Shown here in pieces: positions 11,469 through 63,947 of a stretch of 64,000 bases of DNA. The notes beneath the pieces are model-generated. The model saw nothing but the letters and a program-made list of their open reading frames with translations, searched no databases and was not told the origin of the DNA. Source of the DNA: Candidatus Iainarchaeum sp. (GTDB taxonomy: Archaea; B1Sed10-29; WALL01; JAGHAM01); NCBI GenBank assembly GCA_021161465.1, contig JAGHAM010000004.1:3035-67034 (forward strand), read 5' to 3'. Position numbers and translations under genes: made by a program. How positions within the stretch are numbered: position 1 is the first letter of the stretch; every line of letters begins with the position of its first letter.

Positions 11469-11511
11469 TAAACCTTTAGTAGACACCTCAATAATAAGTT
11501 TTCTCTCCATC

Positions 11512-47265: not shown

Positions 47266-48126
47266 ATGTTAACAGTGAAAAATATAATGTTGGTATTCAT
47301 GGACTTTAAAAAACTCAGAGAGAAGGCATTTAAGGAAACTATTAATGAAGTTCGCAAGGAGAAGAAAGAAACTGATAACCTTGTTGTCCAGGCTGTTGAG
47401 GCGATAGATGAGCTTGATGATATCACGAATATCATAGTTGAGAGAGTGAAGAACTGGTATGCCTTCCACTACCCAGAGCTTGAAAAGCTCGTGAAGGATC
47501 CTATGCTATACCTGCTTATAATAAAGGAGATTAAATCGAGAGACCAAATGCTCGCTGAAAAACTCGAGAGGTTTGTCGGGCCAGAACGGGCAAAAGCTAT
47601 TGCAGAGAAAGCTGTTGGGTCTATGGGGGCCGAGATTGTAGATAAAGACCTGCAAAGGCTTGTACATCTGGCAGAGCTTGGGATTCATGCAAGACAAGAA
47701 AGGGATGAGTTGGCCGATTACATAGAAGAGAGGACAAAAGAAATCACACCAAACCTTCATGCTATGCTTGGTGGTATGCTTGCTGCAAGGCTTATAGCGA
47801 GAGCAGGTTCACTTGAGCGGCTAGCTAAAATGCCTGCCAGCACCGTGCAGGTACTGGGCGCGGAGAAGGCATTGTTTGCACATCTGCGTAGGGGTGTTCC
47901 TTCTCCAAAGCATGGTTTGATATTCCAGTTCCCACAGATAATCCAGTCCCCAAAGAAGCAGCGTGGGAAGATATCCAGGGCGCTGGCTGGGAAGGTTTCC
48001 ATAGCAGCCAAGGAGGATTTCTTTGGAAATAAGGATATAAGCAAAGAACTAATTCAAAGCTTTGAAAAGCGGGTTGAGGCTATAAAGGAGGGAGCATCAA
48101 AGAAGAAGGGTGGCAAGCATGAATGA
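47266..48126 (+). CDS. Nop5/Nop56-family C/D box snoRNP protein (short archaeal form)
   Basis: Nop domain 'MLGGMLAARLIARAGSLERLAKMPASTVQVLGAEKALF...HGLIFQ'. True start probably the Met at about 47299. Confidence 0.8.
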   Translation: MLTVKNIMLVFMDFKKLREKAFKETINEVRKEKKETDNLVVQAVEAIDELDDITNIIVERVKNWYAFHYPELEKLVKDPMLYLLIIKEIKSRDQMLAEKLERFVGPERAKAIAEKAVGSMGAEIVDKDLQRLVHLAELGIHARQERDELADYIEERTKEITPNLHAMLGGMLAARLIARAGSLERLAKMPASTVQVLGAEKALFAHLRRGVPSPKHGLIFQFPQIIQSPKKQRGKISRALAGKVSIAAKEDFFGNKDISKELIQSFEKRVEAIKEGASKKKGGKHE

Positions 48127-48775
48127 AATCTTTCATAATGTTTTCCGTGAAGGCAACAAACTTTACACAAAGAACTTAGTTCCTGGGCAACGGGTTTACG
48201 GAGAAAAACTTTTGGAAACTGGCCGGGGAGAGCTGAGGGAATGGAACCCAAACAGGTCCAAGCTGGCTGCGGTGATACTAAAGGGCTTGAAAACGTTTCC
48301 ACTCAAGCAAGATTCAAAGGTGCTCTATCTCGGTGCTGCCCAGGGAACCACTGCATCACACGTTAGCGATGTAGTGGACAAAGGTTATGTTATCTGTGTT
48401 GATGTATCCTCTAAGGCTATGGAGGAGCTGATACCTCTGTGCGAATCCCGCCAGAATATGCTTCCGGTTCTTGGAGATGCTAACAGGCCTGGAGAGTATG
48501 CTAAGTATACTCTTGGAATTAATATGATTTATCAGGATGTTGCCCAACCAAACCAAGCTAAAATACTGCTAAAGAACGCTTCACTGCTTGATCCAGGGGA
48601 GTACGCTATCTTATGTATTAAAAGTAGGTCAATAGATGTTGCAGAAGACCCAAAGAAAATCATCAAAAAAGAGTTGGAATCCGTTTCTGATGGTTTTTTT
48701 GTGAGAGAGGTGATTGACCTCGAGCCATACCACATGGACCATGCACTAGCTGTGTGTGAGAAAAAACTTAGTTAG
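48110..48775 (+). CDS. flpA: fibrillarin-like rRNA/tRNA 2'-O-methyltransferase
   Basis: 'VLYLGAAQGTTASHVSDVV' SAM-binding motif of fibrillarin. Start overlaps the Nop5 stop. Confidence 0.85.
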   Translation: MASMNEIFHNVFREGNKLYTKNLVPGQRVYGEKLLETGRGELREWNPNRSKLAAVILKGLKTFPLKQDSKVLYLGAAQGTTASHVSDVVDKGYVICVDVSSKAMEELIPLCESRQNMLPVLGDANRPGEYAKYTLGINMIYQDVAQPNQAKILLKNASLLDPGEYAILCIKSRSIDVAEDPKKIIKKELESVSDGFFVREVIDLEPYHMDHALAVCEKKLS

Positions 48776-49737
48776 GCCAGGTTATAGTCAATTATGCGCT
48801 TCATCATCACGAAGGGCTGTGCTCCACCAATCAAGCTATCACCGATGTAAAAGGAGGGGGCTACTATGGCTCCTTCTTTTATTGCCAGCTGGTAGTCTCC
48901 CTGTACTGTGCTTACCTTTTCCCCGTTTCCAAAGCATGTGTTGAACTCTTCCATATCGAGACCAACCTTCATAGCATAGCTCTTTAAGTCTTCGTCAGAC
49001 AGTGCATCCTTCAAAGATTCTGGATCCCAGTTATCATAAAGCACATCATGATATTCCCAGAATTTACCTTGGTCATAAGCGCATTCTGCTGCCTCTGCTG
49101 CCCTTTCTGACCTAGGGTGTATGCTTGTGAGCGGGAAGTTGATGAATACATATTTTGCCTTGCCAGTGTCAACATAATCTTTTATGATTTTCTTGTAGGT
49201 TGTTCTGTAGAAGTTCCTGCAGTATGCACAGTCGAAATCACCAAATTCAACTATCGTGAGCTTTGCTGACATATTTCCCTTTATGGGCTGTCCATCAAGG
49301 TTTATCTTCGATGGCGACAGTTCAGGTGTCATTAAAACAAAGTATATCTTTTCTATCTTTAGGGTTCTGTCATCCACCCTGACTTCTATAATCTTTAGGC
49401 CTTCGTTTGTTTTAGCTTCATAGTCTACAAGCCATTTGCCATTAGCGAAATTGTATCTGGTATTTTTTATTGAACCGCCGTATCTAAGGCGTGTCAGAGT
49501 ACTTAGCACAAGATGGTTCACATCATTATTTGTCCTTATTGGAAGGATTATGTTGGAAACAGACGAGGAGGGCACATTCATGTTGCATACCCTCTCCTCT
49601 TTTAGCACTTGACTGGTTCCAGCAAGTATGCCAATCATCAGGGTTGCTGAGATAAATACAATTATCAAATACCATGTTCCCGGAGGTATATCCCATGGAC
49701 ATTCTTCGCTCAGCAACTTCTTGAGCTTTTCCATCAT
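48772..49737 (-). CDS. membrane-anchored thioredoxin-fold DsbA-like oxidoreductase
   Basis: 'FGDFDCAYCRNFY' CxxC active site, with an N-terminal TM helix. The ORF-track N-terminal extension to 49818 overlaps the tRNA 3' exon and is probably not translated (start at 'MMEKLKK'). Confidence 0.6.
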   Translation of the reverse strand: MMEKLKKLLSEECPWDIPPGTWYLIIVFISATLMIGILAGTSQVLKEERVCNMNVPSSSVSNIILPIRTNNDVNHLVLSTLTRLRYGGSIKNTRYNFANGKWLVDYEAKTNEGLKIIEVRVDDRTLKIEKIYFVLMTPELSPSKINLDGQPIKGNMSAKLTIVEFGDFDCAYCRNFYRTTYKKIIKDYVDTGKAKYVFINFPLTSIHPRSERAAEAAECAYDQGKFWEYHDVLYDNWDPESLKDALSDEDLKSYAMKVGLDMEEFNTCFGNGEKVSTVQGDYQLAIKEGAIVAPSFYIGDSLIGGAQPFVMMKRIIDYNLA

Positions 49738-49757
49738 GTTATTACTCCATTTGTAGG

Positions 49758-50188
49758 TGGGCGCGAAGGGACTTTCCACCCCAATAGGGGGTTTGAGGCG
49801 CACCAACCTTCCCTGCACACATGGATTTGATAACCTTCTATCTCCATGCAGGTACCCTCTGCAGGGTTAGAGGTTCGTCCAGACCATAAGTCTAAACGTG
49901 TGCACCCTTTTCTTCCTGCGTATCGGGTGGCCTCGTGCCACCCCTGCAGGTTTAGAGATTCGTTCTAGACTGTAGGTCTAGAACGGGTGCAACCCTCCTG
50001 GTGCAACCAATCTTCCTACAATCGGGATACGGATGATATTCCATCCCCATGCAGGTTTAGAAAGGGTGCAACCCTCCTGGTGCAACCAATCTTTCGAACC
50101 CTCGGCCTCAGGTTATCCTCAGCCACGCTGAGTGTACCAGAACGGGCCTTATAAGACCTGCGCTCTGACCTGGCTAAGCTACGCGCCC
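49758..50188 (-). tRNA. tRNA-Ile(UAU)? candidate with anticodon intron (~35 nt) and very long (~320 nt) T-loop 59/60 intron
   Basis: Minus strand: acceptor GGGCGCG/CGCGCCC with A73. UA. Canonical D-arm GCTT-AGCCAGGTCA-GAGC. Anticodon stem CAGGT/ACCTG, loop CTTATA|A. Variable AGGCC. T-arm GAGGG-TTCGAA[intron]T-CCCTT. The intron carries two 28-nt direct repeats. Confidence 0.4.
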
Positions 50189-51714: not shown

Positions 51715-52005
51715 ATGAAGGTTAAAGACTTACAGGTTAGAAAATCTGTTGATTCTATCGAATTGGAGATAGTTAGTATTGATGAGCCGAGGACTTGGTC
51801 GAACCCACGTGGTTCTGGAAGGGTTGCTTCTGCAACGGCTAAAGATGATACTGGTGAGGTTAAACTGACTCTCTGGAATGATGACATTGACAAGGTCAAG
51901 AAAGGAGATACAATAGTCATAGAAAATGGATGGGTTGGAGAGTTCCAGGGAGAGAAGCAGTTATCCACAGGAAGGTACGGGAAGCTCACGGTTAACCCAA
52001 AATAA
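51715..52005 (+). CDS. single OB-fold nucleic-acid-binding protein (SSB/RPA-like)
   Basis: 96 aa, 'VSIDEPRTWSNPRGSGRVASATAKDDTGEVKLTLWND' OB-fold pattern. Confidence 0.5.
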   Translation: MKVKDLQVRKSVDSIELEIVSIDEPRTWSNPRGSGRVASATAKDDTGEVKLTLWNDDIDKVKKGDTIVIENGWVGEFQGEKQLSTGRYGKLTVNPK

Positions 52006-52033: not shown

Positions 52034-53701
52034 ATGCTTGAGTTTAGAAAGCAGGTAGCTGTTGCCTTGTCAAAGGCCTCTGGCGTTGAAGTCAAGCCCA
52101 GGGAATTGACCATACCACCAAATCCAGAGTTAGGTGACTTATCTTCTAATGTGGCTTTTCAGCTTCCTGGGAACCCGAAGGAAAACTCGGAGAAGATAGC
52201 TGGGAGGATAAAACCGAGAGGGCTTATTTCTAAAGTTGAAACCAAGGGACCTTACATAAACTTCTTTCTAAACTGGGCCGAATTCAATCGATTGACCATA
52301 GCTACTGCACTGAAACACAATTATGGTAAAAACACGGACTACACAGGGAAGACAGCAATGGTTGAATACAGCCAACCAAATCCAAATAAGCCTCAGCATG
52401 TTGGGCATTTGAGAAATAACCTTCTAGGCATGGCAGTTTCAAATATACTGGAAGCTAACGGTTGGGAGGTTGTTAAAGCTAATCTTATAAACGACCGTGG
52501 CATCCACATATGCAAGGCCATGCTTGGATACCTCAAGTGGGGGGAGGGCAAAGAGCCCAATGAAAAGCCAGACCACTTCGTTGCTAAGTTTTACCAGCGC
52601 TTTGTCATGGAGGAGGCTAAGGACCCTGAGCTAACTAAGGAAGCCCAGGAGATGTTGAGGAAGTGGGAAGCAGGTGACCCACAGGTAAGGGCGCTATGGA
52701 GGAAGATAGTAGATTGGGCCTATAAAGGCTGGAACGAGACTTACTCCATGACAGGGACTGAGTTTGACGTTTGGTTCTACGAAAGCGAGACGTATCTGGA
52801 TGGAAAGAGGATTGTTGATAGTGGTTTGAAGAGAGGGGTGTTCAAGAAGGCTGATGATGGGAGTGTTTATGCAGAACTTGAACCAGAGTTGCCGAATAAA
52901 ACAGTGCTCCGTTCAGATGGAACTTCTATTTACATAACTAACGATTTAGCTCTTGCAAAGAGAAAGTTTGAGAGCTATCCGTTGGATAAGAGTATTTATG
53001 TGATTGGCTCCGCTCAAAATACTTATATGAAACAGCTTTTCAGGATTCTAAAGCTGCTTGGTTTTGAGTGGTCGGATAAGTGTTGTCATTTATCCTATGG
53101 TATGGTTTCATTGCCAGAAGGGAAGATGTCTTCAAGGCTTGGCAGGATGATTTACGCTGATGACTTGCTGGATGAAGTTATCAACCTGGCGGAGAAGGAA
53201 GCCGAGAAAAAGGGTATCAGCGAGGATGTTAAGGAGACGGCTAAGCACGTTGGGCTGGCTGCTATCAAATTTAACTTTCTGAAGGTTAACCATAGGAAAG
53301 ACATATTGTTTGAGAAGGAAAAGGCAGTTTCGTTTGAGGGAGATACCGGGCCTTATGTGCAGTATGCCCATGCTAGGTGCAATCAAATAATTGAAAAACT
53401 TGGCAGCTATGGAAAGCCAAATTACTCCAAGCTGACAACACTCCACGAGCGCGAACTCGTGAAGAAGATAAGTGAGTTCCCTGAGATTGTGAGGGAGTGT
53501 GGGGAAACTCTTGAGACACACCCTATAGCTAATTATCTGCTTGAGCTGACGCACACGTTCTCTGATTTCTATGCTAATTGCCCCGTGATACAGTCCAGAG
53601 GCTCTTTAAGGGCAGCTCGTGCTGATTTGGTGAAAGCAACTAAGGGAGTTCTATCTACTGGATTAAGCTTGCTTGGTATAAAACCATTGGAGAAGATGTG
53701 A
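52034..53701 (+). CDS. argS: arginyl-tRNA synthetase
   Basis: 'YSQPNPNKPQHVGHLRN' HIGH region. C-terminal DALR anticodon-binding-like region. 555 aa. Confidence 0.85.
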   Translation: MLEFRKQVAVALSKASGVEVKPRELTIPPNPELGDLSSNVAFQLPGNPKENSEKIAGRIKPRGLISKVETKGPYINFFLNWAEFNRLTIATALKHNYGKNTDYTGKTAMVEYSQPNPNKPQHVGHLRNNLLGMAVSNILEANGWEVVKANLINDRGIHICKAMLGYLKWGEGKEPNEKPDHFVAKFYQRFVMEEAKDPELTKEAQEMLRKWEAGDPQVRALWRKIVDWAYKGWNETYSMTGTEFDVWFYESETYLDGKRIVDSGLKRGVFKKADDGSVYAELEPELPNKTVLRSDGTSIYITNDLALAKRKFESYPLDKSIYVIGSAQNTYMKQLFRILKLLGFEWSDKCCHLSYGMVSLPEGKMSSRLGRMIYADDLLDEVINLAEKEAEKKGISEDVKETAKHVGLAAIKFNFLKVNHRKDILFEKEKAVSFEGDTGPYVQYAHARCNQIIEKLGSYGKPNYSKLTTLHERELVKKISEFPEIVRECGETLETHPIANYLLELTHTFSDFYANCPVIQSRGSLRAARADLVKATKGVLSTGLSLLGIKPLEKM

Positions 53702-54634
53702 GTGCCAAAGCTGTCCGATTTAGGTGAACGTGAGGTCATCAGAAGGGTTCGGAGACTTCTGAAGAGGCCAGGCATATTGACTCAGCTTGATGAGGATGCT
53801 GAGATATTCAAAACAAAAGGCTTTTTAGCGGTGACAACGGAGTTGCATGTTGCAGGCACGCACTTTAGAAGTTCAAGTCCTGTTAGTGTAGGAAAGCGCG
53901 TTGTAGTTTCAACACTCACTGACCTGCTGGCCAAGGGCGCGCTACCACTTTATTTCATGACTAGCATCGGCTTGTCTAGTGATACCGACTATGAGTTTGT
54001 GAGAAAGTTATACAAGTCTATGTCCGACTCTTTGAAAGAATTTAACGCGTTTTTAATCGGTGGTGACACAGTTGAATCCAACCAGTTGGTCATCGGCACC
54101 ACAGCGATAGGCAGGGTGAAAGGGAAACCCTTGTTGAGAAAAAATGCCCGGGTGGGGGATAAGGTGGTGGTTACAGGCGAGATAGGTAACGGCGCGCTTG
54201 GCTATCTGCTCTTGAAAAAAGGGCTGGCAGGACCCAGGAAGTTTGTGAGGGCACAGCTTGAGCCGAGTGTGGACTTTAGGCTCTGCAAACGTTTGATGTC
54301 CAGGGCTAATGCTGGCATAGACATCTCAGACGGTCTCGCTTTTCAACTGGCAGAGGTTGCGAAACAATCGGAGAAGAGAATAACTATTTTCGAGGATGAA
54401 TTACCAGTGGACTCACACTTGCCAAAGCTTTGCAAAGAAAACAACTTCAACTTGGACGAGGTGCTTTTTCACATAGGAGATGATTACCAGGTGCTTTACA
54501 CGATGCCTAACCCACCGAAGGGCGCGCTTGTTATAGGAGAAGTTGAGCGCGGGAGTGGATTGTTCATAAAAAGAAAGACAGGTGAAATCCAGCCGTTGAA
54601 TGGTGAAGGCTGGGAGAGTTTCAAGCGTCATTGA
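53702..54634 (+). CDS. thiL: thiamine-monophosphate kinase-like (AIR synthase-related family)
   Basis: 'LSDLGEREVIRRV', 'DDAEI', 'VTTELHVAGTHF', 'STLTDLLAKGALPL', 'IGGDTV', 'VGDKVVVTGEIG' fit the ThiL pattern. Start abuts the argS stop. Confidence 0.6.
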   Translation: MPKLSDLGEREVIRRVRRLLKRPGILTQLDEDAEIFKTKGFLAVTTELHVAGTHFRSSSPVSVGKRVVVSTLTDLLAKGALPLYFMTSIGLSSDTDYEFVRKLYKSMSDSLKEFNAFLIGGDTVESNQLVIGTTAIGRVKGKPLLRKNARVGDKVVVTGEIGNGALGYLLLKKGLAGPRKFVRAQLEPSVDFRLCKRLMSRANAGIDISDGLAFQLAEVAKQSEKRITIFEDELPVDSHLPKLCKENNFNLDEVLFHIGDDYQVLYTMPNPPKGALVIGEVERGSGLFIKRKTGEIQPLNGEGWESFKRH

Positions 54635-54664: not shown

Positions 54665-54831
54665 GGACGCGTAGCCTAGCCAGGATTGTTCCGTGGCAAC
54701 AGCTCATGGAATCCTGATAGGGCACCGGCCTTCTAAGCCGGCTATCGGGGGTTCAAAATAAGGAGGAGGGACACGTTCCCTCCTCCCTTATAAGCCCTTC
54801 TCCTTTGCGAGTGAGTTTCCCTCCGCGTCCG
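54665..54831 (+). tRNA. tRNA-Arg(UCU) with D-loop intron (~32 nt) and T-loop 59/60 intron (~60 nt)
   Basis: Acceptor GGACGCG/CGCGTCC with G73. U8 A9. D-stem GCCT/GGGC, D-loop AGCCAGGA[intron]TA. Anticodon stem CCGGC/GCCGG, loop CTTCTAA. Variable CTATC. T-arm GGGGG-TTCAAA[intron with 12-bp hairpin]T-CCCTC. Confidence 0.6.
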
Positions 54832-54872
54832 CTTCTTATTGTTATTTAAGTTACAATGAACAAAATAACATT

Positions 54873-55613
54873 ATGCCCGGGAAGCTTGGTCATTCGATTT
54901 ATACAGGTGAAATGAAGCTTAGGGAAAGTTTGATAGAGCATTTTGGGAAGCCTGATGATTACAGTGGAAGCTTGGTCGACTACAACAAGCTTCATGAGAA
55001 GACTATACAACTAAAAATAGACAATCTTTTGAAGAGGCTGAAGTCAAAGGGAGTTCTAAATGAGGACAAGACTGTGAGAATCTTGGATATAGGCTGCTGG
55101 AAGGGCCAGGCGCTTTCTGAAGTAAAAGATTACATAGAAAAGAAAGGTTTTAATGTGGAAGCTTATGGTGTAACACTCGTTAAGCATGACAAGCAGTCAG
55201 CAATGAAAAATGGCTTGAAGATAGTGACTGCGGATGCTGAGAGATTGCCGTTTCCAGATAACTATTTCCACTTGGTCTTATCAGTACATTCTATAGAGCA
55301 TATGTATGACAAGCTTAAGGTTATTGAGGAGGCCCATAGGGTTTTAGCACCGGAAGGGCTTGCCACACTCCACGTGAGAACTCGAAGTTTTGCTACGGAC
55401 GAAGGAAAGCCAATAAGCTTGCGCGTGCTGGCAGAGCGCATACCATCTGGAAAGTTGGTGAATCTGCAAAAGGGTTATTCAAACTTAATTGAATTTACCA
55501 AGAGAAGGGGAGAGAAGCTTAACTTCCATCTTAAAATGGTCAAGTTCGCTAGGAAATCGCCTTCCGGGGGCAGTGTTTCCTTCTATGGACCAGACCGAAA
55601 AGAATTTAAATGA
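54873..55613 (+). CDS. class I SAM-dependent methyltransferase
   Basis: 'RILDIGCWKGQA' motif I, 'LKIVTADAERLPF' and 'LAPEGL' motifs (Methyltransf_11-like). Confidence 0.6.
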   Translation: MPGKLGHSIYTGEMKLRESLIEHFGKPDDYSGSLVDYNKLHEKTIQLKIDNLLKRLKSKGVLNEDKTVRILDIGCWKGQALSEVKDYIEKKGFNVEAYGVTLVKHDKQSAMKNGLKIVTADAERLPFPDNYFHLVLSVHSIEHMYDKLKVIEEAHRVLAPEGLATLHVRTRSFATDEGKPISLRVLAERIPSGKLVNLQKGYSNLIEFTKRRGEKLNFHLKMVKFARKSPSGGSVSFYGPDRKEFK

Positions 55614-55632
55614 TTTTTGCTTTATTGATGGT

Positions 55633-55929
55633 ATGGGAATTGGTAGGTTCGAGAAAAGGCTAATAGCTTCAGCTAAGCTAGCCAGCATGGAGAAGTACGG
55701 TTATTGCTATTCTGAGGATTTGGCTGTAGTTAAGGAGTACTTGCGCGATGAGGTAGAGATTGAAGAGTCTGAAGGCAACAGGGTTACTGTAACACGAAAT
55801 GGGATTTCATTTGAAATTGACGTAAGGGGCATGGTGCCTAAGAAAACAGAGGTTGCCAGTTGGGCTATCCAACCTGCAGAGGAAAGAAGAGGTAAATGGG
55901 TTTCAGTTTTTGACCCCGCAAACCACTGA
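55633..55929 (+). CDS. hypothetical small protein (ORF 55489..55929 trimmed to a non-overlapping Met)
   Basis: The track ORF overlaps the methyltransferase by 125 nt. An internal Met near 55633 gives a non-overlapping 98-aa product. Weak. Confidence 0.25.
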   Translation: MGIGRFEKRLIASAKLASMEKYGYCYSEDLAVVKEYLRDEVEIEESEGNRVTVTRNGISFEIDVRGMVPKKTEVASWAIQPAEERRGKWVSVFDPANH

Positions 55930-55980
55930 AGGATGCTCTCCTTTGCTAGCAAGGACTGCAGCTTTGTTTATCTGTAGAGG

Positions 55981-58314
55981 TTAGTCCTTCTCTATTACCT
56001 TGCCTGTCATGCTATCTAGAACTAGTTCTCTGTTTCCGCTTTTTGATGAAAATATGGCGTAATAAACCGGTTTGTATATGAAGGACTTGTCCCTTATCTT
56101 AACCTCACCAAACAGTGCAGGTATGTCCGAAACAGAACTGTCTGGTATGGTTGGCTTTTCTGTGATTCCTGTGCTTTTCTCCATTACGAGTTCAGTCTCC
56201 AGCGATGTAAACTCAGGTGTTACTAACTTTTCCGGCAGGTTAAAGTCATATTTGAGCGAGTAAACGCCTTTTTTATCTTTCTTGAGCTTCCCCTCATCAA
56301 CGAGCTCATCGCTCTCCTTCATAGTGTCTGCTTCGCTTAACCCCGAGAACTTGGACAGGCTCTTAACACTTGCCTTCTTGCCTTTCCTGAGTGCGACTAT
56401 CACCTTTCTTTTTTCGGGAGGCATTTCCAAAAGTTTCTTCACACCTTTGGTTGTTGTTAAGTTGCCATTTTTTATCCCGATTATCTCTCCGGTGATACCA
56501 TCTATATAGCATACACTCCTCCTGAAGCCACCCTTCTCAAAGTAATCGTATTCCAGCTTGTATATTGGCGAATATCTAACTCCAAACTCCTTCAGGTTCT
56601 CCTCATTTCCAACCAACCCAAACAGCTTTTTCCTCCTCTTTGATTCAAGAATCACCCTAGCTTTGTCTTCATCTATTTTGCCCTTAAGCACAAGCACTTC
56701 CTCAACATCAGTTCCCTCAGGAGAGGGTTCATAACTTTTTGGAACAAGGTAATCGCCGTCAAGCTTGTAGTCTCCAGCTGTGAGCTCTTGGACAAGGTCC
56801 TTACTTTCTATCTTGGTTTTATACCTCTTGTTTATTGTCCTTACCAGTTGGTCGACCTGCCTGAGATGGACCCTTTTGAAGTCTCCAATCCTTTTGATAA
56901 GGGTTTTAATCAGGAAGTCTTTAACTTCCTCTGGCTTTATGCCTTCCTCAAAGCTGACTGACCTAGCTTCCCTACCCTCATGCTGGGAGAACCTTGGTCT
57001 TACTTTCATGACAAAAGCCCTTGAAGTGGAATCGCTTCTGTCGCCGACGAGGCAGTGACCTATCGGGAGTGACCTTATGAATTTTGAATGCTGATACTCT
57101 TTTGGTATCATGGTAGGCATCCTTTTCAAGACTGCTTTCAAGTCATCATCGAAGACAAGCTTATGGCATAGCAGAATATCTAGTTGTGAGAGCACTTTGG
57201 TGTCTATTGCAGATGGTTGCTGGGTTGCAAACACCAGTGAGCAACCAGGCCTCCTGCCTTGTTTTACATACTCTATCAGTGGGTCGCTTGCGGGTGTCTT
57301 AGCACCGCTTGGTATCAGGGTATGTGCCTCATCTATGAAGAGCCAGGTTGGTGGGATTCCGGTTTCAAGCATGTCCTCCATCTCCACCGCAAATTTCTTC
57401 ATGGAGGTCTTCCTGGCAGACAGTTTTCTGGCGTTTAAGATTTTTCTGGCAAGGATTCCTATTACCAGGGAGGAAACTTTTTCCTCAAGGAAGCTTATGT
57501 CTATTATTGATACTTCCCCCTCCCTACATAACTCTATTAGCGGTGTTCCTGTTTCAGTAAACACTCCCCATGATTTGGCTGCTTCGAACCTTGAGATTAT
57601 GGCTCTCCTCGAGCTCTTGCTGAAACCTTTCTTCCCGGACACTATCTCCTCGCTTTCACTTAGGCAGGTTATTATGTCATCTATACTGTAAACCTCCGTC
57701 TTTGGAGGCAGCCTTTTCCCATCTTTAGTTGTATAACCCTCCCTAACATTTTCAAGGGTTTTTTCAAGTAGTAAACCCTTTGGGGAAAACCTGTCAATAT
57801 CAAAGGTAATGCACCAGTCATCTACAGTTAAGTCTGCTGGCCTGAGTGCAAAGCTTCTGTCGTAAGTGTCCTCTGGAAGTGTGTTTCTTACACCATGTGG
57901 CACAAAGACAGACACGTTGTCCACCCCTTTTGGGGTTTGCCCCATTCTCACAAGCTCGTCAAGCTCGCGCTCTTCCTGGTTTGGGTGTTTCATCGACCAG
58001 TAGATTCCTATTGGATCGATTATGACGCTAGCGACGTTTGGATTTTTGAAAACTAGTTCCTCTGCGATTACACCCAATGAATAGCTTTTGCCGGAGCCTC
58101 TCGCCCCAACTATGAATACCACGTGTGGTGCTATAGCATCCATATACACAAAGCTGCCGTAGTTCTCCTGCTCAGCTATCTTTCCCATCAGGAGCGCGCC
58201 GTCTCGCTTGTATTTCTCGTGTATGCTCTTATCTCTCCCTATAAAGAAGGCTCTGCCTGAATCATCTGTTAATGCTTTTAATGGCTCATTTACTCTTGGG
58301 CTAAATGTGGGCAT
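55981..58314 (-). CDS. HerA/FtsK-like DUF87 P-loop ATPase with ~300-aa C-terminal extension
   Basis: Walker A 'GARGSGKS', 'VIIDPIGIYW' (DUF87 'DpeGEY'-like), Walker B 'WLFIDEAHTL'. 777 aa. Confidence 0.65.
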   Translation of the reverse strand: MPTFSPRVNEPLKALTDDSGRAFFIGRDKSIHEKYKRDGALLMGKIAEQENYGSFVYMDAIAPHVVFIVGARGSGKSYSLGVIAEELVFKNPNVASVIIDPIGIYWSMKHPNQEERELDELVRMGQTPKGVDNVSVFVPHGVRNTLPEDTYDRSFALRPADLTVDDWCITFDIDRFSPKGLLLEKTLENVREGYTTKDGKRLPPKTEVYSIDDIITCLSESEEIVSGKKGFSKSSRRAIISRFEAAKSWGVFTETGTPLIELCREGEVSIIDISFLEEKVSSLVIGILARKILNARKLSARKTSMKKFAVEMEDMLETGIPPTWLFIDEAHTLIPSGAKTPASDPLIEYVKQGRRPGCSLVFATQQPSAIDTKVLSQLDILLCHKLVFDDDLKAVLKRMPTMIPKEYQHSKFIRSLPIGHCLVGDRSDSTSRAFVMKVRPRFSQHEGREARSVSFEEGIKPEEVKDFLIKTLIKRIGDFKRVHLRQVDQLVRTINKRYKTKIESKDLVQELTAGDYKLDGDYLVPKSYEPSPEGTDVEEVLVLKGKIDEDKARVILESKRRKKLFGLVGNEENLKEFGVRYSPIYKLEYDYFEKGGFRRSVCYIDGITGEIIGIKNGNLTTTKGVKKLLEMPPEKRKVIVALRKGKKASVKSLSKFSGLSEADTMKESDELVDEGKLKKDKKGVYSLKYDFNLPEKLVTPEFTSLETELVMEKSTGITEKPTIPDSSVSDIPALFGEVKIRDKSFIYKPVYYAIFSSKSGNRELVLDSMTGKVIEKD

Positions 58315-58349
58315 CGCTAATATATACTGAAGGGTAATATAAATAAACT

Positions 58350-59342
58350 ATGGCCTTGAAGAGGACTACTATTGAGTTGGCCAATGAGCTTATAGACTGG
58401 TATGCTAAATCAGGCAATTTGCACAGGAAGGTTTCGCTTGAGGCTTTCAGGGATGCCTATAATGTTAGAACAAGCTATGAAGGTCTTAAAGATCTAATGC
58501 TACAGCTATCATATGCATCTATCCCACTCGAGGGCGGTAAATTCGATTTGAGGAAGGTTCCAAAGACGCACAGGAGAAGGGTTGAGGCATTACGGGAGGA
58601 ATTAAAAAAAGGCAACATAGACATCAAGCAAGCCGAAGCCGCTGCCCGCAAATTTTTAGCTCATCCGCTTGGCGAGAGGATGAGGGACTTGAATCCAATG
58701 GAGGATGAAGAAATCGAGAGGATGCAAAAGCGGTTTGAACTGAGCATGAATAAGGCAATGTCCATATTGACAGAATCTATGAACGCGCATCCTGCTAGGG
58801 CATATAGCATAATGTGGAAGGCACTTGGGGGGAAAATACATGATGAAATACCAATTATAATGAGGAGTTCAAACAAGGGGGAGTTAAGGGATTATTTGAG
58901 AAAGTTTTGGAACGTTAGTTATCTCAAGGCTGATGCCTTTGTCCAGTACAAGAAGGCCGACAGCCATATAATAGACCTATACAAGAACCATTTGGATGAT
59001 ATCCCAGATGAAGCGTTGAGACACACCGTAGAGAACCTATATCGCAGCGTTAGAAGGTACCCATGGGGCAAGCGCAAATCTGCAATCCCTACCAAATCTA
59101 AGGCCGGGATGTCTAAGAGAGATTTTATCAATGGCTATAAATCCTTTGGCATTGAAATAAGGTTGAAGCCTGAAGAAGCGAAATTACCAGAATACAAAAA
59201 GAAGCTCATATTGTTTGGTAGGCATCTCAATGCTGGAACCGCTATATACAAAGAAGCTATGAAGAAAAGAAAAGAGATAGGCCCATTAATTAGGGCTAAA
59301 GAAAAAATGAAATCTGCCCATAAGCGGGCAGAATTAAAATAA
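58350..59342 (+). CDS. hypothetical basic helical protein (330 aa)
   Basis: Divergent from the DUF87 ATPase (35-nt spacer). No motif recognised. Confidence 0.4.
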   Translation: MALKRTTIELANELIDWYAKSGNLHRKVSLEAFRDAYNVRTSYEGLKDLMLQLSYASIPLEGGKFDLRKVPKTHRRRVEALREELKKGNIDIKQAEAAARKFLAHPLGERMRDLNPMEDEEIERMQKRFELSMNKAMSILTESMNAHPARAYSIMWKALGGKIHDEIPIIMRSSNKGELRDYLRKFWNVSYLKADAFVQYKKADSHIIDLYKNHLDDIPDEALRHTVENLYRSVRRYPWGKRKSAIPTKSKAGMSKRDFINGYKSFGIEIRLKPEEAKLPEYKKKLILFGRHLNAGTAIYKEAMKKRKEIGPLIRAKEKMKSAHKRAELK

Positions 59343-59359
59343 AAGAAAAAGAGGAGGGT

Positions 59360-59728
59360 TTAATCTTCTTCCTCCAAGACTTCCTCTTCAATTTCTAAGG
59401 TTTCTTTACCTGTTTCAGGTGATTCTTCCTTTGCTTTTTCCTCCTTCTTCTCAGCTTTCTCTTTTATTTCCTTAGCTGAGCTTATCTCTTCAACAGGTTC
59501 GCCGCTGTCTTCACTCATTTTTAAAACAGAGTCTGCAAGCGATTTGGCTATTCCACCCTCGTCAGGGAAACCAAGACCTCTCTTATATCTCCTTTGCCCA
59601 TCAGGGGTGAAGTATCCCTTGGATAGTGAAATGAAGTAATTTCCATTTACTTCTTTTCTCGCTACTTCAATGAAGTTGTTCGTTCCATACTTTATTTCTT
59701 CTGCCTTAATTGTTGTGTATTCTACCAT
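59360..59728 (-). CDS. hypothetical protein with acidic C-terminal tail
   Basis: 122 aa, 'EKKEEKAKEESPETGKETLEIEEEVLEEED' tail. Confidence 0.4.
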   Translation of the reverse strand: MVEYTTIKAEEIKYGTNNFIEVARKEVNGNYFISLSKGYFTPDGQRRYKRGLGFPDEGGIAKSLADSVLKMSEDSGEPVEEISSAKEIKEKAEKKEEKAKEESPETGKETLEIEEEVLEEED

Positions 59729-59806
59729 TCTGTCTCACCTTGGTTGTTAGTGCGTTGTTTTTGAATCTATCTGTTTAAAAAACTTATCTCTAAGGTTTGC
59801 CTAGGG

Positions 59807-60871
59807 GTGTTCAACAACATAAATCCTTTTATTCTCGGAAATCTACAAATTCCAAGGGAGTTTATGTGGGACTACGAACCTAAAATCATTAAAGATGAAA
59901 AGCCATTGTTGGAAGCCTTTGTGCCTGAGCATGTGTTGCACAGAGAAGGGCAGAAACAGCTTTTGGTTAGCGCGCTGAAGCCAGCTTTAGCCGGGCGCAG
60001 GGCAGTGGACTCCTTCTTCTATGGGCCCTGCGGAACCGGTAAGACGCTATTGGCAAGGTGGCTTTTGAACGAGTTAGAGAGCCATTCATCCAAGGTGCAG
60101 ACTGTATACGTTAACTGCTGGAAAAACAACACGGCGTACACCTGCCTTTCGTCTATACTCAAGGAGTTGGGGGTTTTTACCACATACAGGCAGGCAACTA
60201 GTGAACTGTTAAAACAGCTTGAGGTGGAAGCTAGGGAGAAAGCAACAGTGGTATGTCTTGATGAGGTGGATTCTTTGGAGGACAAGGAGCTTCTCTATAG
60301 CATGTCACGCTCTGGTGTTGCCTTGCTTTTGATATCTAATGACCCCTATGCACTGGTTGACTTGGACTTAAGGATAAAGAGCTCTTTAAGACCGGAGCCT
60401 GTTGAGTTCCCAGCGTATAAGACTGTTGAGATATTCGATATACTGATGCAGAGGAGGTCATACGCGTTTGTGCCAGGGACTGTTGATGATATAGTCCTTA
60501 AGCTAGTTGCTAGGCTATCTGATGGCGATGCAAGGGTGGCCTTGGAAACATTGAGGCGTGCTGCTTTGCTTTCCGAAGAGCGCGGTGAAGATAAGGTCAC
60601 AAGCACAAGTGTGAAGGAAGTGTTTAAGACTACAGGAAACCTTCGCAAGAGTGAAGCCCTAAAGCGCCTGAACGAGCATGAGAAGGCCTTGTACCAGATA
60701 ATTGAGGGCAAGAAAAAAATATCCACAAAGAGGTTGTTTGAAGAGTACACAAAGATAGTAGAAAATCCTGCTACAGATAGGACTTATCGCAATTATATGA
60801 ACCATCTGGTCAAGCTTGGGCTGGTTAAAGCTACTGGTGAGCTTACAGGGAGAAAATACGAGCTAGTTTGA
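59807..60871 (+). CDS. cdc6: Orc1/Cdc6 replication initiation protein
   Basis: 'FVPEHVLHREGQ', Walker A 'GPCGTGKT', Walker B 'VVCLDEVDSL', C-terminal winged helix. Probable start at the Met near 59867. Confidence 0.8.
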   Translation: MFNNINPFILGNLQIPREFMWDYEPKIIKDEKPLLEAFVPEHVLHREGQKQLLVSALKPALAGRRAVDSFFYGPCGTGKTLLARWLLNELESHSSKVQTVYVNCWKNNTAYTCLSSILKELGVFTTYRQATSELLKQLEVEAREKATVVCLDEVDSLEDKELLYSMSRSGVALLLISNDPYALVDLDLRIKSSLRPEPVEFPAYKTVEIFDILMQRRSYAFVPGTVDDIVLKLVARLSDGDARVALETLRRAALLSEERGEDKVTSTSVKEVFKTTGNLRKSEALKRLNEHEKALYQIIEGKKKISTKRLFEEYTKIVENPATDRTYRNYMNHLVKLGLVKATGELTGRKYELV

Positions 60872-60924
60872 TCGATATAGTCAAGTTTTTTAATTCCTTG
60901 TTCCCTTAGGTATACTGGTGTGTT

Positions 60925-61494
60925 ATGCCAACGCATGAAAAACCAAAGGAGTTCCGAAAGCCTGAGAGGAGATGGCCAACAAAACTCGCGAGAATACAAA
61001 TACATGTTTCGGACCCAGAAGGATTAAAACACGTTGGGGTCAGGGGTTACAATGTTCTACAGATTTCTAAAAGGGGCTTATCTCCTGCACCGCTAACGAC
61101 ACCATCAACACGAGAGGTCGAAGAGGAATTCATAAAGAAAGCTAAAAATTTTGGTGTATCAAGCAATCGTTCAAAGATGCCTTCACTCCAACTCAAGGAG
61201 AGAGTGGGTAAAGACATCATAGCCCATACGGTTGTTGAAACGGGGAAAGGTAAAGCTTTTGTAGCAGAATGGACCCGAAAACACTTGGACTCAGAAACAG
61301 ATAGAAGAAGTGGAGTGGAGCGTCTTGTTGTTTTCAACGACCATCCGGAAATATACCAGAAAGTTCTTGAGAAAGAGGGTATTGAAGGCGTACTTAAACT
61401 ACTTGAGGCCCATAACAAAGGTAGGACATTATGGGAGAAGCTTATAAAGCCAAGGATAGACAGGACTAAACGAAACACTCTCGTAAAACTTTGA
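60925..61494 (+). CDS. hypothetical protein (189 aa)
   Basis: ORF only. Confidence 0.4.
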   Translation: MPTHEKPKEFRKPERRWPTKLARIQIHVSDPEGLKHVGVRGYNVLQISKRGLSPAPLTTPSTREVEEEFIKKAKNFGVSSNRSKMPSLQLKERVGKDIIAHTVVETGKGKAFVAEWTRKHLDSETDRRSGVERLVVFNDHPEIYQKVLEKEGIEGVLKLLEAHNKGRTLWEKLIKPRIDRTKRNTLVKL

Positions 61495-61517
61495 TGACAA
61501 AAAAGAGAAGTGTGTGA

Positions 61518-62267
61518 ATGATAGTTGGGATAGACCCTGGGACAACAGTTGGGTTTGCTGTCCTTGACTTGGATGGAAATCCAGTGAAGGTAGGCAGCTT
61601 TAAGAATAAGTCCATTGACGACCTGGTGAGGATTCTATCTAGCTATGAGCCTGTTCTGGTTTCATCTGATGTTGCTAAGGTTCCAGAAGCTGTTAAAAAG
61701 GTGGCCATTGCATTTAATGCAACTGTTTTTCACCCAACTGAGAACTTGCAGATTGAGGAGAAGGTAAAGTTGATTAGAGGCCATAGCGTTTCTAATGTTC
61801 ACGAGCGTGATGCTCTTGCAGCTGCCATTAAGGCTTACAAGCATTACTCCTCCAAGCTAAGGAAAGCTAAAAAGCTTGCAGCGGAGAGACAAGAGGATAT
61901 ACTCCGCGCTGCCCTGCGTGAAGTTAGGTTGTCGGATGTAGCTGAGCCACACCCGGCAGATAGCAAAGAAAACACTGCTGGGATAGCGGAGGTCAGAAAG
62001 GAGCTCGGCATTGAGAAGAAAAAAGCAATCGAGCTGGAGAGGAAAAACAAAGAGCTAAGAAAGAGGCTTGCAGTGGCAAATAAGAAAATTTCGGTGTTAG
62101 AAAGAAAACTTGCAAGGGTGGAGAAATTTTCACAAAAAGAGGAGGTTGCCAGAGAACACAAGGAAGAGAAACATGCCTCCATCACCGAGTTGGAACCTGA
62201 TGAGGTCGAGAAACTATTCTTAGAGTATAAGAAAAACCCTAAGAAGATAGCTAATCTAGGGCAATAA
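61518..62267 (+). CDS. RNase H-fold YqgF/RuvC-like protein with C-terminal coiled coil
   Basis: 'MIVGIDPGTTVGFAVLD' resembles the YqgF/RuvX/RuvC N-terminal catalytic strand. C-terminal heptad-rich region. Confidence 0.4.
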   Translation: MIVGIDPGTTVGFAVLDLDGNPVKVGSFKNKSIDDLVRILSSYEPVLVSSDVAKVPEAVKKVAIAFNATVFHPTENLQIEEKVKLIRGHSVSNVHERDALAAAIKAYKHYSSKLRKAKKLAAERQEDILRAALREVRLSDVAEPHPADSKENTAGIAEVRKELGIEKKKAIELERKNKELRKRLAVANKKISVLERKLARVEKFSQKEEVAREHKEEKHASITELEPDEVEKLFLEYKKNPKKIANLGQ

Positions 62268-62415
62268 GTATCACTATTTCTGCAACTATGAAGAAGACTG
62301 AAAACCAAGCAACCATTTCTGGTGTTATCTCTATCCCACCACCAGAGGTATCAAAATATCTAACCAATCCTGCGGCACTGGTTGGCCCCTGCACTGGGTT
62401 TGACTTAATCTTCAT
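62251..62415 (-). CDS. secG: preprotein translocase subunit Sec61beta
   Basis: Manual translation (not in the ORF track): 'MKIKSNPVQGPTSAAGLVRYFDTSGGGIEITPEMVAWFSVFFIVAEIVILIALD'. The '..AGLVRYFD.....I.P..V...S..FI' pattern plus a single C-terminal TM helix is typical of archaeal Sec61beta. Confidence 0.6.
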   Translation of the reverse strand: MKIKSNPVQGPTSAAGLVRYFDTSGGGIEITPEMVAWFSVFFIVAEIVILIALD

Positions 62416-62426: not shown

Positions 62427-63947
62427 TTATTTAGCTGTTTTCTTGTTTAAATCTTTTTTGTTTTTGCTATGGTGTTTTTTATGCTTCTTCTTGTAGTAAA
62501 AGAACAGTATCACAACTACAATCAACAGTATCACACCAACAACTATCAAAGCAATCACAACCCCAGCTATCAGTCCAAATTCACCTAGTATTGGATGGGC
62601 TTCTCCTTCTGTTTTGAAACCTATATAGAAGGTTGTGCTGTTCTCGCTGTCTGCCCGGTAAACACGCAATGAACCCTTAACTGGCTTGAAGGCCATAGTT
62701 TCATTTGAGATGGCTACCTTACGACTATTAAACTTGTAGTCATCTTCACATTCGGGTGTGTTTGCACTGCAGAACACGAAAGAGCTGTTTTCAGGTAGCC
62801 AGTCAATTCCCTGGACGTTTATCTGGTCTTTTATGTCACCCAAAGTTAAGGAGCCTTCCGTTGTGAAGTCGAGGTTTGCTGAAGCTGGCTCTCCGGGAAG
62901 GCTTTGATTCAACAAAGAGAGTATCGCTGAGAGTGTTGAGTTTTCATCAGGGGACAAAATTCTATAAAGCTTGCAATTGTCAGAGCAGGCAGTTAAGTTA
63001 TCTGTACCATTCTCCTTGTCACATTCTTCTCCATCAACAACAAGCCCATCTCCACATATTGGCACGAGAGAGTTGCAGTCCTTACATTCAAATCCGGGTG
63101 TGTAATTCTGTGATGCACTGGTTTGCTTCGTGTCGCATAACTCACCCTCAACAACAAGCCCATCTCCACATATTGGTGTCATGTTCATACAATCGCTGGA
63201 GCATTTGAAGCCTTTGGTTACATTGCTCTTATCACACACTTCGTCACCAGCTATTATACTATCCCCACAGGTAGTTTCAAGCTTGCAGTCTGATGTGCAA
63301 TTGTAGCCATATGGCACGTCTTTATCACCATCACACTCTTCCCCATTTTCTTTGTCTACTTTACCATTCCCACAATAAGGGGGCACCTCAAGGTAGGCTT
63401 TTGTGCTCATGTCATAAACCTTGTCTAGAGGCATCTTGGTTATTGTCTCTCCATTTATTGTTATGTCCTTTATCTCCCATGTATACTCTCTGTCTCCTAT
63501 TGTATCCGCACCCATAAACACTATGGTTAAGTTGTCAAAGAGGCACTCTGTTGACTTTATGTCCATTTTAATGGTTTTCCACTCATTGTTTTTGAAGGCC
63601 TCCTCTTTCGGGTCGCCATTGGTGTAACTATCTACTGCTGGTCCGTCTGCAATCCTCCCTGGCAATAGCAAGTTTTGTGAACCCGAACTACAAAATACTC
63701 CATAGGCCTCCTGTGTGCTGCCAAGCCAGTTGCACTCAAAGTGAACATGGCATAGGTGACTTTGTGAGGGGTAGGGGAGAAATGAAAAAGTGTTGGTTAT
63801 GAAACCCGGCTTTTCAACCGTTGCATTTTCATATCCATAGATAAATCCAAAGAAGTTTGGCCCATCGTTGTTTTCACCTTCACCAGTCTTCACAGCCAGT
63901 GCATGGTTGTCGAAGTCCAAATCTATATTTGGGGCATTTACCCTCAC
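62427..63947 (-). CDS. secreted Cys-rich Myxococcus-repeat protein with C-terminal TM anchor
   Basis: Repeats 'PICGDGLVVEGELCD', 'PICGDGLVVDGEECD', 'CGNGKVDKENGEECD', 'TCGDSIIAGDEVCD'. C-terminal 'GVVIALIVVGVILLIVVVILFFYYKKKHKKHH'. The 5' end lies near the window edge. Confidence 0.65.
   Translation of the reverse strand: MRVNAPNIDLDFDNHALAVKTGEGENNDGPNFFGFIYGYENATVEKPGFITNTFSFLPYPSQSHLCHVHFECNWLGSTQEAYGVFCSSGSQNLLLPGRIADGPAVDSYTNGDPKEEAFKNNEWKTIKMDIKSTECLFDNLTIVFMGADTIGDREYTWEIKDITINGETITKMPLDKVYDMSTKAYLEVPPYCGNGKVDKENGEECDGDKDVPYGYNCTSDCKLETTCGDSIIAGDEVCDKSNVTKGFKCSSDCMNMTPICGDGLVVEGELCDTKQTSASQNYTPGFECKDCNSLVPICGDGLVVDGEECDKENGTDNLTACSDNCKLYRILSPDENSTLSAILSLLNQSLPGEPASANLDFTTEGSLTLGDIKDQINVQGIDWLPENSSFVFCSANTPECEDDYKFNSRKVAISNETMAFKPVKGSLRVYRADSENSTTFYIGFKTEGEAHPILGEFGLIAGVVIALIVVGVILLIVVVILFFYYKKKHKKHHSKNKKDLNKKTAK

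Follow-up and report, generated by a model that had tools for sequence, protein, structure and literature searches.

Among the classical targets of integration are tRNA genes, and archaeal plasmids are known to carry Orc1/Cdc6 initiators as well as ATPases of the HerA superfamily. Elements of the SSV and pNOB8 types lie directly 3' of a tRNA gene, and genes of these two kinds are typical cargo of such elements; archaeal replication origins, for their part, are usually located beside orc1/cdc6. Here we examine a locus of Candidatus Iainarchaeum sp. that brings these features together. It lies in contig JAGHAM010000004.1, in a 64-kb stretch of DNA that we analysed as a whole and call the window, and it consists of a block of genes at 54.8-62.3 kb that begins directly 3' of tRNA-Arg and includes a HerA-type ATPase and Orc1/Cdc6. 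A first-pass annotation had listed a methyltransferase, a DUF87/HerA-like ATPase, Orc1/Cdc6, a RuvC/YqgF-like protein and several small hypothetical proteins, all of which the list of open reading frames (ORFs) and searches of Pfam and NCBIfam recovered at the positions given for them (Table 1), and had left it undecided whether they form an integrated element or the chromosomal cdc6 and origin neighbourhood. Unlike SSV-type and pNOB8-type elements, the block has neither an integrase nor an att duplication, and it shows conserved synteny and native composition. The segment of the window from 54.6 to 62.4 kb is therefore very probably vertically inherited chromosome of a Diapherotrites (Iainarchaeia-like, DPANN) archaeon and not an island. 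It is an ordinary chromosomal neighbourhood, in which the pairing of the ATPase with its neighbour, the 330-aa protein p330, and an intron family shared among tRNA genes are modest points of interest.

This conclusion is carried above all by gene order. Relatives were compared under the labels L001-L006, L014, L027, L028 and L136, and all of them are metagenome-assembled genomes (MAGs) or metagenome contigs. The block and both its flanks are syntenic in L002, L003, L006 and L014, with no att repeat. On the 1.17-Mb contig L002, whose HerA is 70% identical, the region is collinear from arginyl-tRNA synthetase (ArgRS) to DUF4215, in the order ArgRS-ThiL-301aa-tRNA-Arg-222aa-p98-111aa-HerA-p330-p122-PKD-Cdc6-DUF460-Sec61beta-DUF4215. 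The order is ArgRS-ThiL-...-tRNA-Arg-236aa-p98-HerA-p330 in L006 (HerA 72% identical), HerA-p330-p122-...-Cdc6-...-Sec61beta-DUF4215 in L003 (57%) and HerA-p330-DUF460-Sec61beta-DUF4215 in L014 (72%).

The other possibility, that a plasmid or virus-like element bringing its own Cdc6 and HerA/FtsK-type ATPase integrated at the tRNA-Arg 3' end and now makes up 54.8-62.3 kb, has the tRNA-adjacent site in its favour, together with the known presence of such genes on archaeal plasmids and a generic similarity of the block's Cdc6 to haloarchaeal plasmid Cdc6 proteins (~33% identity). However, the direct repeat of the tRNA 3' end that had been proposed as a test is not there: the sequence TTTCCCTCCGCGTCCGC (54816-54832) occurs once in the window, this 17-mer with up to 3 mismatches allowed matches the tRNA itself alone, and blastn-short found no partial copies of the whole tRNA region in the 64 kb. 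The earlier remark that no integrase is present holds as well, since no protein of the block belongs to an integrase, recombinase or transposase family in Pfam, NCBIfam or PHROGs; PADLOC recognised no complete defence system in the block either. Tetranucleotide composition of the block (r=0.91-0.93 vs. a window mean of 0.908 +/- 0.038) and its GC content (0.43-0.45) are typical of the window. Members of the HerA subfamily are widespread and encoded by a single gene on the chromosome. On plasmids and phages their full architecture has no counterpart: no phage protein matched, and the best plasmid match is 31% identical and covers the ATPase core alone. Conserved synteny without att repeats had been named beforehand as the outcome that speaks against a mobile element, and because this is what was found, the mobile-element reading fails; we consider integration scarcely credible.

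One relative at first seemed to break synteny inside the tRNA. L001 (ENA ERZ23499370 scaffold_1657) comes from the same population and is 99.4% identical to window 54751-61728 (~7 kb), but upstream of the point matching 54751 it carries unrelated genes, so that the junction falls within the tRNA and resembles an integration boundary. At 4780-5010 of L001 the 5' part of a tRNA-Ser(GCU) is joined to the 3' part of tRNA-Arg(UCU) via a 57-nt repeat, which in the window (54751..54807, +) comprises the T-loop and the first 50 nt of the second tRNA-Arg intron (see below) and is identical in the tRNA-Ser(GCU) of the same genome; the gene beside the L001 tRNA-Ser is J7L23_01555, from the same MAG as the window. 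L027 (~2500-2790, minus strand) holds the native tRNA-Ser(GCU), in which the first 50 nt of the intron equal those of tRNA-Arg intron 2 and are followed by its own 3' T-stem and acceptor, while L028 (1-309) stops exactly where the 57-nt repeat ends. Because of these two contigs, the several N gaps in L001 and the inability of the fused tRNA to pair (acceptor GCUGGGG vs. CGCGUCC; T-stem GCGAG vs. CCCUC), the L001 junction is in all likelihood a chimeric assembly join through the repeat rather than an att junction, and this mis-join accounts for the apparent breakpoint. Alternatively, the Ser-Arg fusion could be a genuine recombinant chromosome that some members of the population carry and that arose when the identical introns recombined homologously. 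The 57 nt that the two tRNA genes share without a mismatch are a plausible substrate for this, and over 7 kb the rest of the scaffold matches the window at 99.4% identity; yet both tRNAs would be lost, as the fused gene cannot fold, the native tRNA-Ser in L027 and the end of L028 at the repeat form the pattern expected of an unresolved assembly repeat, and the scaffold has its N gaps, so that we regard true recombination as improbable. Split or trans-spliced tRNA halves were also considered as the source of the L001 pattern and were dropped when the native tRNA-Ser locus was found. Next to that locus, at 63-2464 of L027, lie MazE/ParE-like and AbiEii-like toxin-antitoxin genes, in what may be a variable or mobile region.

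What varies from one genome to another is small, and includes the immediate surroundings of tRNA-Arg. Between tRNA-Arg and p98 there is a methyltransferase in the window, a 222-aa ORF in L002 and a 236-aa ORF in L006; neither ORF matches the methyltransferase, for which no ortholog was found in the related loci. The 5' side of the tRNA varies too, with nothing in the window, a 301-aa gene in L002 (both slots lying within 13099-14870 of that contig) and, in L006 (3132-8303), three paralogous beta-helix surface proteins and a 139-aa gene. The methyltransferase would thus occupy a one-gene variable slot 3' of tRNA-Arg. That it alone (54873-55613) is a recent lineage-specific gain at a tRNA-adjacent hot spot, with the rest of the block ancestral, is a real possibility to which we give somewhat less than even weight: the differing occupants of the slot and the variable 5' side speak for it, whereas no repeats flank the gene, its composition is not distinct at 5-kb resolution, and the three slot proteins could be extremely diverged orthologs. 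Such a gain is compatible with vertical inheritance of the block and is not a true alternative to it.

Several observations do weigh against vertical inheritance of the block as a chromosomal unit. Every relative is a MAG or metagenome contig, and L001 demonstrates that assemblies can err at this very spot. The genes flanking tRNA-Arg differ between genomes, which means that small insertions or deletions occur at this tRNA, and the p122-Cdc6 pair is missing from the L014 block, which is therefore not rigid. p330, p98, p122 and p189 have no fold assignment. Finally, among 20 loci, HerA has no conserved neighbours outside the close clade; for this reason what links it to p330, DUF460 or Cdc6 is lineage-specific adjacency alone.

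The tRNA at the edge of the block had been called from the sequence by the first-pass annotation, and the gene is real, but it is interrupted, which had not been remarked upon. ARAGORN and Rfam, at both gathering and permissive thresholds, reported no tRNA anywhere in the 64-kb window, nor did ARAGORN when introns in the anticodon loop were allowed. Before splicing, the two acceptor halves at 54665-54831 match (GGACGCG/CGCGTCC), a D-arm is present and the anticodon arm, with anticodon TCT, is perfect; extra sequence lies in the D-loop and in the T-loop. We enumerated pairs of deletions across the region and scored every product with ARAGORN; tRNA-Arg(tct) made up 11,752 of the 14,119 products that the program accepted. 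Alignment with the orthologs in L002, L006 and L004 then set the intron boundaries, leaving exons at 54665-54686, 54719-54757 and 54818-54831, whose joined product is a canonical 75-nt tRNA-Arg(TCT) cloverleaf. The precursor is predicted to fold much more stably than shuffled sequence (z=-5.05).

Both introns are bounded by bulge-helix-bulge (BHB) motifs of a relaxed kind, relaxed on the outer-helix side in intron 1 and on the inner-helix side in intron 2. In intron 1 the central helix is CAGG/CCUG, with 3-nt bulges AU|U and AU|A and an inner helix GUUCC/GGAAU; this intron is absent from the tRNA-Arg orthologs in L002, L006 and L004. In intron 2 the T-stem serves as the outer helix, and the H helix UUCA/UGAG is paired in 4/4 positions, U54-A57 pairing with UGAG near the 3' end of the intron; an inner hairpin follows, and the splice sites fall inside the 3-nt bulges AA|A and UU|U, the second at UU|U60. 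An intron at 59/60 of the T-loop is the exact T-arm analogue of a 37/38 intron. Orthologous tRNA-Arg genes have the T-loop insertion alone in L002 and L006, and none in L004, where tRNA-Arg adjoins ArgRS. In a small sample of 3-5 genes there is covariation in the H helix (A57-U in the window vs. G57-C in L002 and L006) and in the acceptor (G5-C68 vs. A5-U68 in L006). These features suggest that tRNA-Arg(UCU) is a functional gene whose transcript needs two splicings, the archaeal splicing endonuclease EndA presumably cutting the precursor twice, at the D-loop and T-loop BHB motifs; the EndA gene is not within the 64-kb window.

The second intron belongs to a family. The spread of introns among archaeal tRNA genes is known from Thermoproteales as "intron transposition", and the situation here is similar in that different tRNA genes within a single genome harbour a near-identical intron at one and the same position. 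The 59/60 T-loop position and its geometry are common to tRNA-Arg of L002 and L006, tRNA-Ser(GCU) of L027, a tRNA-Ile(UAU) in the window and a tRNA-Arg(CCU) in L136, with intron sizes from 37 to 321 nt and the inner hairpin set off from the central helix by extra nucleotides; five related tRNA genes besides the window's tRNA-Arg were all accepted by ARAGORN when spliced. L136 is a contig from an unrelated JGI metagenome; its tRNA-Arg(CCU) (543-741, +) agrees with the window's tRNA-Arg(UCU) in acceptor and D-arm and is interrupted both by a 37/38 intron and by a T-loop intron homologous to intron 2 (the hairpin plus TTTCTAAACC), indicating that the 59/60 family is common to several tRNA species of the lineage. 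This was the only real relative in a metagenome scan with a 17-mer, nearly all of whose 120 matches were chance occurrences in unrelated coding sequence. The intron-2 hairpin had 0 matches in genome and metagenome contig collections that do not hold this population.

The tRNA-Ile(UAU) (50188-49759, minus strand) is a second hidden tRNA gene of the window. It has a ~35-nt intron at 37/38 and a 321-nt T-loop intron at 59/60, with direct repeats (50000-50014 and 50079-50093) inside the latter. The gene escaped both ARAGORN and Rfam, and ARAGORN accepted its form spliced in silico. The GTG start called for the ORF at 48772-49818 (minus strand) overlaps the 3' exon of this tRNA, and the true start is probably further downstream. 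With several introns per gene, intron positions other than 37/38, splice motifs of BHB type and invisibility to standard tRNA finders, these genes resemble known archaeal disrupted tRNAs, and the interruption of tRNA-Arg is a known kind of gene disruption. They differ from the known cases in that the genome is of Diapherotrites type, the family is specific to T-loop position 59/60, and the motif is relaxed rather than a strict hBHBh'. Non-canonical BHB introns and the spread of introns among archaeal tRNA genes have been reviewed (PMC4090602), and for DPANN archaea an increased disruption of tRNA genes has been described, along with the expectation that some disrupted genes have gone undetected (PMC5829648).

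We turn now to the ATPase. Archaeal HerA is the translocase of HerA-NurA end resection and, to our knowledge, every solved HerA pumps double-stranded DNA (dsDNA) and acts with a bound partner. The 777-aa protein of the block shares with it a HAS-barrel and RecA-like fold, the Walker A and B motifs, the Pfam domains DUF87/HerA_C and an adjacent candidate partner gene. In Foldseek searches its N-terminal ~490 residues matched HerA hexamers, the best being Thermococcus kodakarensis HerA-NurA (9x1m, E=3e-18) and Sulfolobus solfataricus HerA (4d2i), with E=3e-18 to 1e-12 against many HerA structures and 14-18% identity to the solved proteins. Walker A (G70 and G73-S77, in GARGSGKS) and Walker B (D328/E329, in FIDEAH) are invariant in 26 sequences. 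Since it falls far short of the cutoffs of the NCBIfam HerA equivalogs (48.9 bits vs. 800 for NF040937, 46.1 vs. 970 for NF040819), we place it in a distinct subfamily. An AlphaFold2 model (mean confidence, pLDDT, 83) has ordered C-terminal domains, and the protein divides into a HAS-barrel (1-60), the ATPase (~60-445), a winged helix (461-527), an alpha/beta domain (536-621), a MarR-like winged helix (625-690) and a second alpha/beta domain (700-777); the family profile matches the MarR-type repressor AdcR at 641-735.

Its C-terminal extension, put earlier at ~300 aa and considered unusual, is real (~320 aa) but not peculiar to this locus, as it is conserved in hundreds of DPANN homologs. We collected 779 homologs, mostly full length and 40-72% identical, from Diapherotrites/Iainarchaeum, Micrarchaeota and some Hadarchaeota and Thermoplasmata MAGs. 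Some carry extra helix-turn-helix domains, and some (P0098, P0109) carry intein or LAGLIDADG homing-endonuclease insertions; inteins are typical of conserved core informational genes. Unlike archaeal HerA, the protein has this extra region of two modules, each a winged helix plus an alpha/beta domain, and no NurA, Mre11 or Rad50 gene was found in the block or in the related loci. The candidate partner p330 is predicted by its model to be all-alpha and not an RNase-H-like nuclease. A functional analogy may be drawn with FtsK/SpoIIIE, in which a motor is followed by a C-terminal winged-helix gamma domain: here too a pumping ATPase of the same superfamily has C-terminal winged-helix domains that could target sequence or orientation. 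In contrast to FtsK/SpoIIIE, however, the N-terminus has no transmembrane segment, HerA is nearest in fold, and the match to the FtsK family is weak (PHROG, E=1e-4). By such analogy the 777-aa protein may be a dsDNA translocase targeted or regulated by its own winged-helix modules, with p330 as its likely partner. Together with p98 these two would form a lineage-conserved p98-HerA-p330 unit, i.e. a hexameric HerA-type dsDNA translocase with two C-terminal winged-helix/alpha-beta modules and an all-alpha basic partner.

The 330-aa basic protein had been described as divergently transcribed from the ATPase, and so it is. A "Candidatus Diapherotrites archaeon" MAG encodes the same protein (J7L23_00915, 100% identity), which identifies the source of the window as a DPANN archaeon. 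Orthologs of p330 in L002, L003, L006 and L014 are each adjacent and divergent to HerA; the family is fast-evolving and restricted to the close clade. Sequence and profile searches of the PDB, permissive Pfam searches and AlphaFold2 followed by Foldseek assigned it to no fold or family. Its model is all-alpha with low confidence (pLDDT 65), and an N-terminal helix-helix-helix-hairpin is at most suggestive of a winged helix. The 35-nt spacer that separates it from HerA contains two opposed TATA-like boxes, as do its 34-36-nt counterparts in L002 and L003, and the two genes would share this divergent promoter.

DUF460 scores 120.2 bits against PF04312 (cutoff 28), opens with an IVGIDPG first-strand aspartate motif and ends in a coiled coil; orthologs are found in L002 and L014. 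DUF460/COG2433 is an archaea-specific RNase-H-like, resolvase-like family whose average length suggests additional domains (Majorek et al. 2014, PMC3985635). The block protein is like this family in its PF04312 match and motif, and unlike it in having only 249 aa and a coiled-coil tail. For p122 we found a conserved ~60-70-aa domain and an acidic tail in a family of ~103 clusters. A hint of a PC4/PUR-like fold that would bind single-stranded DNA comes from one of 52 family members, which matches DUF3276 (PUR-alpha) weakly (E=0.0018); its profile had no match in the PDB and nothing in Pfam beyond that weak one, and an hhalign comparison with human PC4 gave the expected register at a probability of 0.35%, which is not significant. 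p98 had no family match, and p189 had neither a family nor an ortholog in related loci save the same-population scaffold L001. In the block as we picture it, p122 and Orc1/Cdc6 would form a divergent chromosomal pair, followed by the orphan ORF p189 and the putative RuvC-like nuclease DUF460, and then by Sec61beta. At 1749-4896 of L014, p122-Cdc6 is absent and DUF460 stands directly beside p330-HerA, so that the Cdc6 linkage is not universal; HerA-p330-DUF460 may be the older unit.

Three further readings concern what these genes might do together. HerA-p330, with or without DUF460, could be an anti-virus defence of the HerA-plus-effector type (Sir2-HerA, DUF4297-HerA, TdpAB), given that most solved bacterial structural relatives are defence complexes with a HerA-bound effector, that p330 evolves fast and that PADLOC HerA models match weakly and partially (best E=1.8e-21). 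All of these scores, though, are far under the family cut-offs (38 bits vs. a cutoff of 850 for the NCBIfam antiphage HerA model), the top structural matches are archaeal repair HerAs, p330 has no recognisable effector domain, and hundreds of DPANN genomes conserve the subfamily as one gene, some copies with inteins, whose position here is syntenic rather than island-like; a defence role is very unlikely. The block might instead hold the chromosomal origin beside cdc6, perhaps in the p122-cdc6 spacer or overlapping coding sequence, with HerA, p122 and DUF460 as replication or segregation factors tied to the origin. The adjacency to orc1/cdc6 is typical of archaeal origins, the divergent p122-cdc6 pairing is kept in L002 and L003, an SSB-like OB-fold gene lies 8 kb upstream, and the HerA gene is ~19-36 kb from the contig start in all three contigs >1 Mb that have a gene of the subfamily (L002, L004, L005). 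Against this, the cdc6 spacers are short and filled by Shine-Dalgarno (SD) and TATA-type motifs, with no repeats like the origin recognition box (ORB) and no DNA-unwinding element (DUE), cumulative GC skew does not turn at 59-61 kb, and in L014 cdc6 is missing from the corresponding place; an origin within the block itself is rather unlikely. That HerA is near the start of those three contigs may be a coincidence or reflect an assembly break that recurs close by. Finally, p98-HerA-p330, linked to p122-Orc1/Cdc6 and DUF460, might be an undescribed chromosome-maintenance machine of Diapherotrites-type DPANN archaea. If so, a self-targeting HerA-type DNA pump, analogous to FtsK and equipped with an all-alpha partner and a RuvC-like nuclease, would serve segregation, resolution or repair, coupled to replication and near its origin. 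We regard this as a long shot; our observations comprise gene identities, the HerA fold, synteny, the lack of mobile-element hallmarks and an intron geometry that yields canonical spliced products.

The evidence on Cdc6 and a possible origin can be stated more fully. The protein resembles Orc1/Cdc6 initiators in scoring above the family cutoff and in its AAA+ and Cdc6 lid domains (TIGR02928 covers residues 27-349; Cdc6_lid and AAA_22 are above cut-offs), and has orthologs in the L002 and L003 loci and none in the L014 block; it is probably the, or a, chromosomal initiator. Unlike typical Orc1/Cdc6 loci, this one encodes a short protein (354 aa) with a C-terminal winged helix below threshold (PF09079, E=0.0037), has no ORB or DUE adjoining and is off-locus in L014. 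The earlier alternative of a chromosomal cdc6 neighbourhood stands as a description, but no positive sign of an origin at this spot was found, the spacers being at most 78 nt long, promoter-like and free of repeats. Intergenic regions had been put at <140 nt, and the block spacers indeed span 17-78 nt; on the two sides of cdc6 they measure 78 and 53 nt (GC 0.37 and 0.34). Scans of the block spacers for repeats and AT-richness agreed with the annotation's statement that neither ORB repeats nor an AT-rich DUE is found beside cdc6. No ORB-like array is present in them, a weak negative given that an ORB consensus for DPANN is not established, and one weak 18-nt inverted match (83%) flanks cdc6, overlapping promoter- or terminator-like A/T runs. 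Neither the cdc6 spacers nor their immediate surroundings contain any of the 25 most AT-rich 120-nt segments; the only one touching the block (62401, GC 0.27) falls where Sec61beta meets DUF4215. Cumulative GC skew tracks the strand of the genes, and a stretch of 64 kb is too short to judge a polarity switch by it. The p122-cdc6 spacer contains an SD belonging to p122 and a TATA/AACTTATCTC motif of promoter type, motifs that recur in L002 and L003, and we read the motifs in this spacer and in that between HerA and p330 as probable promoters. An origin may exist near the block, though nothing in the sequence shows one. The window's most AT-rich non-coding segment (4347-5030), tried as an alternative origin, has no repeat array.

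Table 1. Features of the block and its flanks (positions in the window)
Feature	Position	Strand	Remarks
Arginyl-tRNA synthetase (ArgRS)	52034..53701	+	Left flank, syntenic; orthologs adjoin the block in L002, L006 and L004
ThiL/AIR-synthase-like protein	53702..54634	+	Left flank; orthologs with AIRS/AIRS_C domains at the same position in L002 and L006
tRNA-Arg(UCU), two introns	54665..54831	+	Spliced 75-nt cloverleaf; syntenic orthologs in L002 and L006
Intron 1, 32 nt	54687..54718	+	D-loop, after position 20a
Intron 2, 60 nt	54758..54817	+	T-loop, position 59/60
Class I S-adenosylmethionine-dependent methyltransferase	54873..55613	+	PF08241, E=3e-16
p98, small conserved protein	55633..55929	+	Convergent with HerA; orthologs beside HerA in L002 and L006
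HerA-subfamily ATPase (DUF87/HerA_C), 777 aa	55981..58314	-	PF01935, E=3.4e-16
HerA-p330 spacer, 35 nt	58315..58349		Sequence CGCTAATATATACTGAAGGGTAATATAAATAAACT
p330, 330 aa, basic	58350..59342	+	Divergent from HerA; no family match
p122, 122 aa	59360..59728	-	Divergent from cdc6; orthologs in L002 and L003
p122-cdc6 spacer, 78 nt	59729..59806		GC 0.37
Orc1/Cdc6, 354 aa	59807..60871	+	TIGR02928, 221.6 bits vs. cutoff 181.3
p189, 189-aa orphan ORF	60925..61494	+	No family
DUF460/COG2433 RNase-H-fold (RuvC/YqgF-like) protein, 249 aa	61518..62267	+	PF04312, E=6.4e-35
Sec61beta	62251..62415	-	Right flank; PF03911, NF002318; position kept in L002, L003 and L014
DUF4215 cysteine-rich-repeat membrane-anchored protein	62427..63947	-	Right flank; PF13948; orthologs in L002, L003 and L014

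The wider window consists of housekeeping genes: those for AlaRS, another class-I aminoacyl-tRNA synthetase, peptidases, Nop5/fibrillarin, PhoU and an SSB-like OB-fold protein. The last (96 aa, 51715-52005, +; PF21473, E=9.7e-9) is directly upstream of ArgRS. The Nop5 and fibrillarin genes are at 47266-48775, and a candidate C/D-box small RNA with clear C, D', C' and D boxes is located at 23170-23230 (minus strand; best score 30.1 bits, E=0.022, below the Rfam gathering thresholds). A 1.2-kb segment (10284-11511) contains short ORFs only, among them an 80-aa ORF at 10776-11018, and has no Rfam match.

With this a false lead is closed: the combination of a tRNA, Cdc6 and a HerA-type ATPase resembles an archaeal integrated plasmid, yet here it is very probably native chromosome. 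Near-identical introns in different tRNA genes are in effect dispersed repeats, which can fuse unrelated loci in metagenome assemblies, and such fusions give false synteny breakpoints that mimic integration junctions. As for the ATPase, nothing in this analysis shows the subfamily doing anything unexpected; HerA proteins with tandem winged-helix modules are nevertheless widespread in DPANN archaea and completely uncharacterised, and so they are a reasonable target for studies of genome maintenance in reduced archaea. Multiple non-canonical introns make both tRNA genes of the 64-kb window invisible to ARAGORN and Rfam. Estimates of completeness and codon capacity for MAGs of this kind are therefore too low, in agreement with what has been expected for DPANN archaea (PMC5829648).

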